A stretch of DNA of 64,000 nucleotides from Eledone cirrhosa (lineage: Eukaryota): positions 1-64,000 of the forward strand of contig CAXHJY010001254.1 in the NCBI GenBank assembly GCA_964016885.1, in the 5' to 3' direction. This document shows positions 1 to 61,632 of this stretch, piece by piece. The notes under the pieces were generated by a model, which made no database searches, was not told the origin of the DNA, and worked only from the letters and a program-made list of their open reading frames with translations. Numbering within the stretch: position 1 is the first letter of the stretch; each line of letters opens with the position of its first letter. Made by a program: the position numbers and the translations under genes.

Positions 1-233
1 GATCTGTTGAATATGCATGCCAATTCTAACACATATATTTCCTAGAAACGATCGTTAAATAATGAACTTTTTTTGTTTAATATAAGGAACTGTTTCATTG
101 TTTTATTCATTATTTTTTTAATATTTTATATATATATATATATATATATATATATATATATATATATATATATATATATATATATATTATATACGATATT
201 AATAAATGGAAACTATATTTATAAAACCATATT

Positions 234-298
234 TATTTCATTATACATATTTCAGGGATACCACATAAAATTATGGTATACCTTCATCAGACAAAATA
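234..298 (-). ncRNA. Type I hammerhead ribozyme (minimal stem III)
   Basis: Reverse complement of the 2481-2545 motif. Confidence 0.75.
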
Positions 299-1845
299 CA
301 ATATATAACAGTTTTACAAATAGGTTTGACGTACACTTTAAAATACAACCATTACTTTTGGAGGTTGTCTGGATAGTGATTTGTTTATATAATAAGTCAT
401 AGTGTTAAGCACAATTAGAGAAAGACAGAGAGAAAGAAAGAGAAAAGAACAAAGACAGAGAGAGAGAAAGAAAACCTGGAGAAATATCGGAGAGAGAGAG
501 AGAAATGTATGGAGAAAAGAAAGAGATAGATAAAGATAGGAGGAAATAAAAAAGAAAGAAAAGGAAGGAATAAGAAAAATAAAGGAAGCCAACAGAGAGA
601 TATCAAGTCATCATACAGACAGAGAAACTCAAGAGAGAGAAATACTATATAGAGAGAGGGGGATAGTGACAACTTTACGTCATGTCATATTAAGTTAAGT
701 TAACAATTTATATGAAATGAATAATAAAAATATGAATATAAGTATCAATATTCATGAATGGGACATAGATATATAATATGAGAAATTAAACATTGTTCAA
801 TAATGACCATATGTTTAGTTTAGAAACTTGAGATCAATATACCAAAATCTGAGTTCAAAATGTACCCTTGGTATAGATATTAGTATTTTATGAAAAGACA
901 TACAAATATATATGTATATATTCATACATATAGATACGCACGTCCTGAAAATAGAAATTATGTTTACTCAAGCCAACAATATAGCCATACAAAACGTAAA
1001 TGATTTCTCTTAATCACTGCTATACACTCATTGTGTTATAAAAATTTCACAGTATATTTATACAAATATATACGATTAACAATCATGTCCTCATATATAC
1101 GATTACCATTCATGTGTTTAATATTATGCACATCTGCAACATACCTCTCAATCACATAGATATATACACACACATATATACACATACATATGTATAAATA
1201 AATATTTGCGTACGTCCTTATGCATCACTCATGTATATATACAGACACATATACAAACACAAAAAATCTATAACACTTTCTATGCATGTTAATACACACA
1301 TATGCATTTGTATAGATATAATCCAATATCAATAAATTACCAAAGGATTATAATTTGCAAATATAACCATAACAATACAAATTTAAAATATCAAGGAATA
1401 TATTTTGGAAATGCAACTATATAGTCAAAAGAAATCTAGAAATATCAAAGCATTAAATATCTTTAAAACACTATAGAGTACCTTAAGTTAAAATAATATG
1501 TTTTATATATTTAGTATAGAAATTTATCCTACGTATATCTCAATCAAGATATTGAGAGGGTAGACTTGTGAAAGTTATGAGAAGCTATCATAATCAAAAC
1601 AAATAAAAATAATTTAAAAGATTTAAAAAATTAAAAAAACCCAATGATTCTACAGATAACCTTAAATTTAATATAGAAATTTACCTTACGTATATTTTAT
1701 TTAATACATTGGAAGTATAGACATTTTAGAGTAGTTTATTATATCCATGTTTATATTTAGGAAGAAAGTTTAAAAAGAAAAAGGTGAAGGAATCTAATGG
1801 ATTATCGACAGGTTCTATATATTAACTAAAATTACTTAATTATAC

Positions 1846-56199: not shown

Positions 56200-59100
56200 A
56201 TATATATATATATCGATAATTATATATATATATATATCTATAATTATATATATATATATCGATAATTATATATATATATATATCTATAATTATATATATA
56301 TATATCTATAATTATATATATATATATCTATAATTATATATATATATATATCTATAATTATATATATATATATATCTATAATTATATATATATATATCTA
56401 TAATTATAGATATATATATATCTATAATTATATATATATATATATCTATAATTATATATATATATATATATCTATAATTATATATATATATATATATCTA
56501 TAATTATATATATATATATATATCTATAATTATATATATATATATATATCTATAATTATATATATATATATATCTATAATTATATATATATATATATCTA
56601 TAATTATATATATATATATCTATAATTATATATATATATATATCTATAATTATATATATATATATATCTATAATTATATATATATATATATCTATAATTA
56701 TATATATATATATATCTATAATTATATATATATATATATCTATAATTATATATATATATATATCTATAATTATATATATATATATATCTATAATTATATA
56801 TATATATATATATCTATAATTATATATATATATATATATCTATAATTATATATATATATCTATATCTATAATTATATATATATATATATATCTATAATTA
56901 TATATATATATATATATCTATAATTATATATATATATCTATATCTATAATTATATATATATATATATATCTATAATTATATATATATATATATATATCTA
57001 TAATATATATATATATATATATATATCTATAATTATATATATATATATATATATCTATAATTATATATATATATATATCTATAATTATATATATATATAT
57101 ATATCTATAATTATATATATATATATATATCTATAATTATATATATATATATATCTATAATTATATATATATATATATATCTATAATTATATATATATAT
57201 ATATATCTATAATTATATATATATATATATATCTATAATTATATATATATATATATATCTATAATTATATATATATATATATATCTATAATTATATATAT
57301 ATATATATATCTATAATTATATATATATATATATATCTATAATTATATATATATATATATATCTATAATTATATATATATATATATATCTATAATTATAT
57401 ATATATATATATATCTATAATTATATATATATATATATATCTATAATTATATATATATATATCTATAATTATATATATATATAAAAATCTATAATTATAT
57501 ATATATATATCTATAATTATATATATATATATATATATATCTATAATTATATATATATATATATCTATAATTATATATATATCTATAATTATATATATAT
57601 ATATATCTATAATTATATATATATATATTTCTATAATTATATATATATATATATCTATAATTATATATATATATATATCTATAATTATATATATATATAT
57701 ATCGATAATTATATATATATATATATATCTATAATTATATATATATATATCTATAATTATATATATATATATCTATAATTATATATATATATATCTATAA
57801 TTATATATATATATATATCTATAATTATATATATATATATCTATAATTATATATATATATATATCTATAATTATATATATATATATATCTATAATTATAT
57901 ATATATATATATATCTATAATTATATATATATATATATCTATAATTATATATATATATATATATCTATAATTATATATATATATATATCTATAATTATAT
58001 ATATATATATATATCTATAATTATATATATATATATATCTATAATTATATATATATATATATCTATAATTATATATATATATATATCTATAATTATATAT
58101 ATATATATATCTATAATTATATATATATATCTATAATTATATATATATATATCTATAATTATATATATATATATCTATAATTATATATATATATATCTAT
58201 AATTATATATATATATATCTATAATTATATATATATATATATCTATAATTATATATATATATATCTATAATTATATATATATATATATCTATAATTATAT
58301 ATATATATATATCTATAATTATATATATATATATATCTATAATTATATATATATATATATCTATAATTATATATATATATATATCTATAATTATATATAT
58401 ATATATATATCTATAATTATATATATATATCTATATCTATAATTATATATATATATCTATATCTATAATTATATATATATATATATATATCTATAATTAT
58501 ATATATATATATCTATAATTATATATATATATATATAATTATATATATATATATATATATATCTATAATTATATATATATATATCTATAATTATATATAT
58601 ATATATATATCTATAATTATATATATATATATATATATCTATAATTATATATATATATATATCTATAATTATATATATATATATATATCTATAATTATAT
58701 ATATATATATATATCTATAATTATATATCATCATCATCATCAACGTTTAACGTCCGTGTTCCACGCTTGCATGGGTTTGGACGGGGGTAGTCCCACTTGA
58801 GGCAAGAGTGATTGTCTTGCTCGCATAGGACTGTCTGGCAGGTTTTCTACAGTTGGATGCCCTTCCTAACACCAACCACATTTACAGTGTGGGTCTGGGA
58901 GGTTTTTACCGTGTTGCCTACACGGCCACATTACAGCGTGGACTGTGTGTTTTTTTGTCGTGACACCTACACGATCTCATTTGTTTCGGCCTGGATGGCG
59001 CGGCACCAACATAACTTTACATAGAACGGGGTGGTGTGGATGGGGTGGGGGTGGCGGCGGGAGGGGTGTATTTTGTTAGAGATGCCTACTGGCAAGGCGG

Positions 59101-61413
59101 GTCTTCTCTGTTACTGAGTACCGCCAAAGGTCACGGTCCAGTGACATTGTCTTGGAGAGGTGTAAGTGTGTGAGGTCGGAGTTTATCAGCTCATCCCATG
59201 TTTTTCTAGGTCTGCCTATTCCGTGGCTACCGTCTATCTTTATTGCCCTGCACTTTGTAATACAGCTATCGACTTTCATGCGCATCACGTGTCCATACCA
59301 ACGCAGCCTTCTCTCGAGTAAACAACATCTGATCCCTCTTATCTCTAATTTTTTCCTTAGTTCGTTTATGCTTTGCCGTTCACGTATATTACTGTTACAC
59401 ATCCAGCGGAGCATGCAAGCTTCGTTCCTCTCTAGTCTGCGTATATCCTCTGCACACAATGCCCAGGTCTCACTACCATGCAACATTGCTGTTCGTATGC
59501 AGGCATCGTACAACCTGCCTTTCATTTTTAGGGAGAACCCTTTAGCAGCTAATAGTGGTATAAGCTCTCTGAACTTTTTCCAACCAGTTCTGACTCTAGC
59601 TACAGTACTTTCAGAGCACCCTCCCCCACTGCTGATTTTATCGCCCAGGTAACGGAAGCTGTCCACTATTTCTATAAAACCCTCTGCGCAATTGAAAGAG
59701 CTAGTATTTTGTGGGCACTTGCTGCTACTTATTGCACCAGAACACCGGCCACATGTAAAGTCTATGTTCTTAGTTAGCTTACCTGTGATCCCACTACGTC
59801 TTTTATGCACCCATACTTTGCATTTAGGACATAAGATGGAGTTTCTACCTACGCCTTTCCTACATACCGAGCACGACCATTTCCCAGAAGGGACCGCCGC
59901 CTTGTTTTCTTTCCTACAAACTAGAACTTTGGTCTTAGCCAGGTTAATTTTAAGTCCTTTTGACTCTAGGCCGTGCTTCCATGTTTGGAATTTCTTCTCT
60001 AGCTCGGCCATTGATTCCGCTATGAGTGTCAGGTCGTCTGCGTATAGGAGTTCCCATGGGCAGCCTGTCTTGAACTCCTCTGTTATAGCCTGAAGGGCAA
60101 TAATAAATAGTAGGGGGCTGAGAACAGAGCCCTGATGGACGCCAACTTTTACGCTAAACTCTTCACTATATTCGTTGTTAATTCTAACCTTGCTGACTGT
60201 TTCTTTATACATGGCTTGTATAGCCCTCACAAGCCATTCGTCAACGCCTAGTTTTCTAAGAGCCCACCAGATAATGGAGCGGGGGACTCTGTCGAAGGCT
60301 TTCTCCAGGTCGACAAAAGCTAAGTAGAGGGGTTTACCTTTAGCTAGGTACTTCTCCTGTAGTTGTCGTACTACAGGAGAAGTACCTAGCTAAAGGTAAA
60401 CCCCTCTACTTAGCTTTTGTCGACCTGGAGAAAGCCTTCGACAGAGTCCATATATATATATCTATAATTATATATATATATATATATCTATAATTATATA
60501 TATATATATATATCTATAATTATATATATATATATATATCTATAATTATATATATATATATATATCTATAATTATATATATATATATATATCTATAATTA
60601 TATATATATATATATATCTATAATTATATATATATATATATATCTATAATTATATATATATATATATATCTATAATTATATATATATATATATATCTATA
60701 ATTATATATATATATATATATCTATAATTATATATATATATATATATCTATAATTATATATATATATATATATCTATAATTATATATATATATATCTATA
60801 ATTATATATATATATATATATATATATATCTATAATTATATATATATATATCTATAATTATATATATATATAAAAATCTATAATTATATATATATATATC
60901 TATTATTATTTATAAGCATAAAAATCTATAATTATATATATATATATCTATAATTATATATATATATATATCTATAATTATATATATATATATATATATA
61001 TATATCTATAATTATATATATATATATATATATATATCTATAATTATATATATATATATATATATATATCTATAATTATATATATATATATATCTATAAT
61101 TATATATATATATATATATATATATCTATAATTATATATATATATATATATATATATATATCTATAATTATATATATATATATCTATAATTATATATATA
61201 TATATATATATATATCTATAATTATATATATATATATATATCTATAATTATATATATATATATATATATATATATATATATATATATATATCTATAATTA
61301 TATATATATATATATATATATATATATATATAATTATATATATATATATATATAATTATATATATATATAATTATATATATATATATATATAATTATATA
61401 TATATATAATTAT
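56200..61413. repeat. (TA)n-TCTATAAT satellite (units of about 20-30 bp), interrupted by an RTE at 58729-60449
   Basis: More than 100 regular units on both sides of the insertion. Confidence 0.95.
58729..60449 (-). mobile_element. 5'-truncated RTE LINE (open RT C-terminal half 59076-60370) with a 5' foldback (60370-60449)
   Basis: AFVDLEKAFD, GVHQGSVLSPLLF, LLYADDL, FRYLGD, HGSETW. (ATG)n tail at 58729. Confidence 0.92.
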
Positions 61414-61632
61414 AGAGAATTTAGTATATCTACTAACATATGCGTACAGATGTACACTAATGCTAGCAAATACATAAGTTATGTCATAGTACCTAGGTGG
61501 TTCAATGCAGGAGGATGCAGAACAATAATATGAAAGACGTAAAATAAGAAAATTTTAAAAAGAATTAAAAAAATTAACTTACTTACTAAAATTTTAGTAA
61601 GTTAATTTTTTTAATTCTTTTTAAAATTTTCT
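61414..61632. mobile_element. Inverted fragment of the 523-nt HHR family with a small foldback
   Basis: Similar to 8549-8690 and to the reverse complement of 6370-6540. 61547-61592 is inverted at 61592-61632. Confidence 0.7.

Follow-up and report, generated by a model that had tools for sequence, protein, structure and literature searches.

This report concerns Penelope-like elements (PLEs) inserted into (TA)n tracts of the 3.0-Gb genome of Eledone cirrhosa, as seen in a 64-kb window (contig CAXHJY010001254.1, positions 1 to 64,000, the whole stretch of DNA that was analyzed; 33% GC and dense in (TA)n tracts) and at further loci across the genome. Many of these insertions have two arms, in which a minus-strand copy on the left is joined head to head to a plus-strand copy on the right. 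The 3' ends of such arms fall at two fixed points, an inner site and a tail end, and a two-armed insertion nearly always has one of each. We judge it probable, at roughly 0.6, that these insertions arise by coordinated twin priming, in which one complex, likely dimeric, acts at two fixed RNA sites, one per cut end.

Three coding PLE families occur in the window, which we will refer to as A, B and C, together with the non-coding families D, D2, E, F, G, H, I and C2; a hammerhead core is found in most of the latter. Other repeats include two families of long interspersed nuclear elements (LINEs) that we take to be of RTE type and another LINE presumed to be of CR1 type, both labels resting on general features and a Pfam reverse transcriptase (RT) match, as well as a further PLE, a long terminal repeat (LTR) retrotransposon and SINEs (short interspersed nuclear elements). 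Arms were mapped by BLAST, and their sense was set by the strand of the open reading frame (ORF, located with tblastn) or of the hammerhead core. Hammerheads were found by a pattern scan with stem checks, while an Rfam scan returned no hammerhead match at E <= 0.1. Genome copies were sought through protein and exact-pattern searches.

In every family typed, the 3' ends joined to TA lie at the inner site and the tail end, 55-130 nt apart. These correspond to positions 3165 and 3251 in family A and to about 3471 and 3549 in family B, with the same two-fixed-end pattern in C, D, D2, E, F, G and H. A set of 190 genome loci, 110 of them picked by similarity to families A or B, yielded 108 same-family two-armed insertions, 20 of which had an untyped end. 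Among the 88 with both ends typed, 86 were mixed (one inner, one tail), one was tail-tail and one was inner-inner. When the count is restricted to a sample of 80 evenly spaced stretches of 10 kb, mixed ends are found in 32 of 32. One-armed copies in the same stretches end 33 times at the inner site and 33 times at the tail, and independent choice therefore predicts that about half of all pairs should match. Arms that are split by a spacer also keep the one-of-each rule when arranged minus-then-plus (6/6). Within the window, eight insertions are mixed, one is tail-tail and one is untyped. The rule is broken by pairs composed of two different families (n=6), of which two are tail-tail, one is inner-inner, one is mixed and two are untyped.

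An initial annotation of the window had proposed that a self-complementary (TA)n tract presents two equivalent ends, each of which primes independently before the products are joined; in such a model the two could be copied from different RNAs. Independent priming from equivalent ends is contradicted by the 86 mixed pairs, with matching ends in only 2 of 88, and also by the shared source of long arms described below. We regard this model as improbable, even though start sites located at TAT or ATAT and the existence of the six two-family pairs accord with it. Still less probable is the stacking of two separate insertions in TA hotspots, later fused or homogenized by gene conversion. TA tracts are crowded, TA interrupts the arms of some insertions, and pairs of two families occur, but independent events would not choose complementary ends in 86 of 88 cases, and neighbours across TA are mostly tail-to-tail (24 versus 6).

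The same annotation had held that insertions in (TA)n are two-armed, with the RNA 3' ends of both arms facing outward. The outward polarity is borne out far beyond chance, while the two-armed state is not general. A first pass over the 80 stretches found 28 divergent and 3 convergent direct joints, all three of the latter between different families, and neighbours across a TA spacer that were convergent (tail-to-tail) in 24 cases and divergent in 6. The cleaned count, comprising 133 chains, contained 39 minus-then-plus insertions, no plus-then-minus insertion of a single family, one minus-plus-minus chain and 93 one-armed copies, the last number being an upper bound, since stubs shorter than 28 nt escape detection. 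Cleaning removed families C2 and I, for which end types are undefined, low-complexity matches (positions 178-250 of family F and portions of A, B, C and E2), matches shorter than 28 nt or with less than 72% identity, chains truncated where a locus ends, and duplicates from loci that overlap; prior to this step, the tally held 3 plus-then-minus and 9 three- or four-part chains. Neighbours within 5 kb of family-B endonuclease matches (n=150) were minus-then-plus in 11 cases, plus-then-minus in none and same-strand in two. The corresponding figures were 11, 2 and 4 for neighbours of family-A motif matches (n=100), and 19, 1 and 1 for those of family-B motif matches (n=100). TA-flanked RTE LINEs are mostly one-armed too. 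Polarity is thus a strong and real pattern, and one that also accords with independent priming. It adds little, because the layout has already been published for PLEs, as well as for L1 twin priming, and any priming from both cut ends must yield it.

The head-to-head structures are genomic and not assembly chimeras, because raw Illumina reads from three samples, bearing the same species label but belonging to a separate study, carry the same junctions. The inner-site TA junction is represented by 2331 and 2504 reads for family A and by 3176 and 2771 reads for family B, and opposite-strand joints are found whose short side ends exactly at the inner site. A sequencing or assembly artefact, in the form of fold-back reads or mis-joins at TA, is hard to credit: low-complexity palindromes are prone to mis-assembly and the read support comes from short reads of other samples, yet the arms of one insertion mostly diverge by 0.1-7%, and their fixed ends are unequal. 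Such palindromes ought not to be discarded as errors of assembly.

Polarity alone is not decisive against fold-back of cDNA, which gives the same polarity; arm geometry does rule it out, in part. The alternative would consist of a single priming event followed by self-priming or fold-back of the cDNA, or of an antisense template, with the endonuclease trimming one end at the inner site, and it resembles the self-priming and resolution ideas found in passages of PMC3846280 and PMC8557442. Under it one would expect arms that meet head to head, are nearly identical and have a tail at a single end. The 5' limits of the two arms lie within 20 nt of each other in 34 of 69 family A and B insertions, and short family-B arms meet near a small palindrome, as fold-back would have it. 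In the remaining insertions, however, the tail arm reaches further 5' in 17 and the tailless (inner) arm in 18. These 18 are not fold-back products, since a copy cannot hold sequence absent from its template. Furthermore, the tail arm does not pass the inner site in 16 of 90 insertions, and in the in vitro work of PMC11167929, in the part bearing on the tail, both tail boundaries are RT start sites. On balance, fold-back appears unlikely as the general origin of these insertions.

Comparison of the arms points to a common template. Of 15 family-B pairs sharing 345 or more positions, 12 have arms that resemble each other more than in any cross-locus comparison (to illustrate, 0.1% versus at least 1.3%). 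The upstream and terminal pseudo-LTRs (pLTRs) of one insertion differ at 0-7 sites in loci L171-L188, mostly fewer than separate them from copies elsewhere, as expected from re-reading one template or from a circular RNA. Of 83 central joints, 32 are clean; most of these show microhomology, with a mean of 2.2 nt compared to 0.69 nt in a shuffle null, in keeping with the earlier proposal that two cDNAs are joined in the middle.

Coordinated twin priming would proceed as follows. One element complex would cut both strands of a (TA)n tract, and each cut end would start reverse transcription at a different fixed RNA site. The enzyme would be a dimeric RT-endonuclease whose subunits are each positioned by a bulged hairpin immediately 3' of the respective start site, with TAT or ATAT at the start pairing with the (TA)n end. 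Overlapping arms could stem from a single RNA, through strand displacement, or from a pair of RNAs with a common source, and host end-joining would presumably fuse the two cDNA ends. One-armed copies would represent cases in which the second end was left unprimed or its cDNA was lost.

Most start sites do lie at a short TAT or ATAT, able to pair with either (TA)n strand. Within about 8 nt there follows a predicted hairpin, with a 3-4-bp lower stem (ACTC/GAGT, GCTC/GAGC or GTTC/GAAC), in most cases a bulge of 2 nt on the 3' side, and a short upper stem (TACT/AGTA, CTAC/GTAG, CAAA/TTTG, TGCA/TGCA or CAAG/CTTG). It is seen at B inner and outer, C inner, D inner and outer, A outer and G, and is also listed for D2; the sequences differ but pair, and in one family-C variant both sides of the upper stem are changed. 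Examples include:

25538-25561 (+), hairpin immediately 3' of the inner start site in family B: two 4-bp stems separated by a 2-nt bulge
2593-2612, same geometry at the family C inner site
8894-8917, same geometry at the family D inner site
L181:4141-4162, same geometry at the family B outer site (locus L181)

When scored by script, the hairpin occurs at 9 of 13 sites compared to 8.5% of random positions, a significance that is optimistic because the motif was defined after the sites had been seen. An alignment of seven hairpin sites left the stems out of register. We treat the hairpin as a candidate start signal, a lead and not a result. A stronger version of coordinated priming, in which two tandem bulged hairpins dock the two subunits of a dimer at fixed sites, each subunit extending one strand while both share one template over kilobases, is put forward tentatively, with the odds somewhat against it. 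Such programmed twin priming, if true, would explain the inverted pLTR and the one-sided tail, two unexplained hallmarks of PLEs, through an RNA signal that can be mutated.

Several observations weigh against coordinated twin priming or its hairpin signal. The mechanism is inferred wholly from end products. Three same-family insertions violate the one-of-each rule, including 14246-18002 in the window, and 2 of the 12 listed family-B read joints connect an inner end to a tail end, i.e. tail-to-tail. In 74 of 90 insertions the tail arm runs past the inner site, some of them exceeding it by over 2 kb; the same RNA stretch, or an identical one, must therefore have been read twice, and simple twin priming on a single RNA is insufficient unless displacement or a second RNA is assumed. 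Arm identity could result from gene conversion after insertion, and the identity test has no discriminating power for short arms. Extra or unassigned bases are present at 51 of the 83 central joints, some of them short templated repeats. A comparison of the lone arm with the upstream and the terminal pLTR gave 17 versus 10 sites, a split that does not single out either as its source. As for the hairpin, the script did not score it at the G, H and E sites, family E is without it, and the folding z-scores of the hairpin regions are weak (best -1.4). Finally, the start sites of the Anolis Poseidon element PAc, as described in the relevant portion of PMC11167929, are alike for top and bottom strands.

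Much of the layout has precedents in the inverted pLTRs of PLEs and the twin priming of LINEs (PMC3846280, PMC8557442 and PMC2912911, in their passages on these structures), both of which the initial annotation named as established. According to the sections on insertion structure in PMC3846280, head-to-head is the most frequent arrangement, with a tail on one of the inverted pLTRs. Those of PMC8557442 describe an inverted 5'-truncated copy beside the 5' end, a tail that is often one-sided, and (TA)n targets for Naiad and Hydra, and treat the formation of tandem and inverted PLE insertions as an open question. The insertions studied here share the head-to-head arms, partial tandems and (TA)n preference; an inverted 5'-truncated copy joined head to head at the 5' end is found, and the tail is one-sided in 86 of 88 typed insertions. 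They differ in having tails of 55-130 nt instead of 30-40 nt and in a pairing that is near obligatory (86/88), whereas the same passages propose self-priming or endonuclease resolution and give no pairing count. A literature search, with subscription papers and supplements lying outside it, found no count of end-type pairing, no proposal of TA self-complementarity and no naming of hairpins such as those above.

The closest biochemical counterpart is PAc, which in the in vitro sections of PMC11167929 cuts and extends both strands, has two RT start sites bounding the tail, is predicted to form a dimer, and uses uncut hammerhead RNA as template. The PAc start sites are described there as non-homologous to the cut DNA, in contrast to the TAT or ATAT at most start sites here, and those sections report no pairing of start sites within a single insertion. 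L1 offers a second comparison: 639 of 2068 recent copies are 5'-inverted in the counts excerpted from PMC2912911, and the polarity of twin priming is also treated in part of PMC12350158. Minus-then-plus order and joint microhomology are shared with L1, and the RTE cases fit, including 11891-12464 and most inversions of RTE1, one of the two RTE-type families. In L1, the second primer is placed at a variable internal site, whereas the PLE families have two fixed start sites and arms that overlap by up to more than 2 kb. L1-style twin priming was considered for the PLE families and set aside, being countered by the fixed sites and by the 74 of 90 tail arms that extend past the inner site. The flanks are (TA)n, in which a target-site duplication around the whole insert would blend in. 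The non-coding families D, E, F and I resemble the non-LTR retrozymes of bioRxiv 10.64898/2026.07.22.740005, characterized in its relevant portion as tandem units that are short, lack coding capacity and carry a type I hammerhead, with a proposed origin from PLEs; inverted arms and fixed start sites are not a subject of that portion.

By their motifs, families A, B and C are classed as Hydra-type PLEs; a Pfam search of the Hydra-type frames gave no match, so the assignment is made on motifs. Locus L181 contains a 790-aa open frame with RT followed by a C-terminal GIY-YIG domain, and family A has the same order in frameshift-broken form, while only the endonuclease end of family C is present. 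Families A and B both have DKT, and RWR instead of RWK. Family B has a CNCPDRSIC linker (CxCX5C), CNLC and CKH, family A has CNCRNRVDC (CxCX5C), CDLC and CKH, and both are without CCHH. The pLTR carries a canonical hammerhead core in C and a variant in A, while the pattern scan found none in B. Features shared with the Hydra clade, as outlined in section 11 of PMC8557442, are DKT, CxCX5C, a C-terminal GIY-YIG without CCHH, CxxC and CxH beside conserved E and N, and (TA)n insertion; the differences are the RWR, units of 3.3-3.5 kb, and the hammerhead status of A and B. Naiad identity is ruled out by the C-terminal endonuclease and DKT, as opposed to an N-terminal GIY-YIG with CCHH and DKA, and a Naiad protein, suggested earlier as test enzyme, would have been the wrong choice. 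A further PLE at 46143-50822 (+), with a C-terminal GIY-YIG and a CxxC linker, is unlike the Hydra-type families and is one-armed.

TA symmetry may help, with both strands pairing with the same short motif. Leaving aside ends that continue into the element, 215 of 226 ends in families A and B abut TA, the other 11 being non-TA. Judging from published non-TA cases, TA symmetry would not be required: rotifer Penelope, in the passages of PMC3846280 devoted to it, shows the same head-to-head layout and one-sided tail with ordinary 8-10-bp target duplications, which counts against equivalent TA ends as the cause. The relevant part of PMC6007223 treats RTE target pairing but not the idea of TA self-complementarity. 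Inversion affects 9 of the 26 RTE1 copies that could be assessed, namely 6 of the 12 that have TA in the 5' flank and 3 of the 14 that lack it; this lies in the direction expected from the independent-priming model (p = 0.22). RTE2, on the other hand, speaks against that model, being two-armed in only 1 of the 15 copies that have TA in the 5' flank and inverted in 2 of 23 overall. Four RTE1 inversion calls stemming from an internal palindrome were rejected by eye, and copies at a locus edge (4 RTE1, 7 RTE2) were left out of these counts. Inversion rates are at or below that of L1, and our reading is that the RTE cases represent ordinary L1-style twin priming at a modest rate. Three RTE-type copies (L191, L228 and window 55248-55290) carry the element 3' end on both arms, which would call for the 3' end to have been copied twice, unlike ordinary twin priming.

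Of the 18 window sites that had been listed as minus-then-plus, 17 stand. Thirteen of these are clean same-family direct joints (marked 'direct' below), while four (7025-7344, 21497-22852, 5763-6538 and 50985-53774) are divergent without a single clean joint. The weak case is 10762-11252, where the plus stub measures only 10 bp. Both of the exceptions named at the time exist, a snap-back near 50969-50984 and an inversion at 22610-22732. The insertions are as follows:

188-2676, direct, family C, Hydra-type PLE by motif: long minus arm ending at the inner site (188), short plus arm through the tail to 2676; GIY-YIG frame minus 2219-1875; hammerheads at 290 (-) and 2489 (+)
4064-4383, direct, family G: inner end left, tail end right; sense taken from end pattern and hairpin alone, no ORF or hammerhead found
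5132-5256, direct, mini-insertion of family A: the minus arm extends to the inner site, and the plus arm consists of the tail only
5763-6538, D2 (minus) and D (plus) back to back, separated by (CA)n and likely the result of two events: hammerheads at 5923 (-) and 6290 (+); D has its own inverted 24-bp stub at 6087-6110
7025-7344, family H: minus tail arm, 82-bp TA tract, 29-bp plus stub ending near the inner site; weak hammerhead
7358-7971, family F, two-armed, overlooked in the initial annotation: inner left, tail right; hammerheads at 7551 (-) and 7706 (+)
8546-9413, direct, family D: minus tail arm, tandem plus arm ending at the inner site
9434-10664, direct, family E, tandem unit resembling a retrozyme: tail end on the left and inner end on the right; hammerheads at 9770 (-) and 10385 (+)
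11891-12464, direct, RTE-type LINE inverted at its 5' end in the classical manner: twin priming as in L1, with a short deletion where the arms join
14246-18002 (+), direct, family A, near full-length Hydra-type PLE by motif: inverted pLTR stub 14246-14386, upstream pLTR, RT-GIY-YIG frames 14782-16903, terminal pLTR, inner site 17916, tail end 18002; tail at both ends, a rare class
17840-17893 (+), predicted type I hammerhead-like fold of family A: CAGAAGA core variant, from the pattern scan
21497-22852, composite of family A: a minus and a plus arm separated by short TA, the plus arm containing an inversion (22610-22732) that gives one convergent joint
25210-25609, direct, family B: inner left, tail right
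36592-37322, direct, family E, two-armed
50970-53774, chimera: family B ORF minus (50985-53092) joined to family A pLTR plus; 9-bp snap-back 50970-50978; family B end at neither usual start site
54250-55203, direct, family B: tail left, inner right
55248-55290, direct, micro-palindrome of an RTE-type 3' end: 15-bp arms, (GAT)n on both
58729-60449 (-), direct, RTE-type LINE: inverted duplication of 80 bp at the 5' end
61416-61632, direct, family D minus arm and 33-bp exact plus stub: followed by an RTE-type LINE, not TA

At least 10 one-armed retro-insertions beside TA were absent from the earlier list, namely 5527-5704, 8050-8485, 18194-18408, 18527-20095, 23399-23871, 24275-24637, 25755-28947, 36346-36547, 44795-45830 and 55308-55592. 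The first of these is a tRNA-type SINE with a likeness to octopus SINEs. A hammerhead-bearing unit plus its TA tract is tandemly duplicated, at 99.4% identity, at 23399-24637. Several insertions are surrounded by a dispersed satellite, a unit of some 25 bp that is repeated between TA runs (44729-44790, 50842-50926, 53790-54233 and 55213-55900).

Pairing of inner and tail ends can be studied in large numbers in this genome, in which a 34-mer of family A has at least 25,376 exact copies. One-of-each pairing, the template shared by the arms and the candidate hairpin together narrow the mechanism. The family A tail may also occur outside its own family. Reads covering 17915-17965 include about 800-1100 per run that join a 50-bp piece of this tail to an end similar to that at 13006-13808, which has a hairpin then CTAG and which we take to be the 3' end of a Helitron-like element. 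These joins suggest that a second family captured the 50-bp piece.

Among the other features of the window, an LTR retrotransposon at 29099-33279 has two LTRs that are 94% identical and gag, protease, RT and integrase-like frames, and it adjoins the 5' side of the CR1-type LINE. A decayed frame at 40420-40845 resembles the N-terminus of a mariner transposase. A 32-bp tandem array of 18 copies occupies 42467-43037. Lastly, a mir-46/mir-281 precursor at 43315-43396 (-) scores 64.9 bits against an Rfam gathering threshold of 44.7 and is likely a real microRNA gene in this repeat-rich contig.

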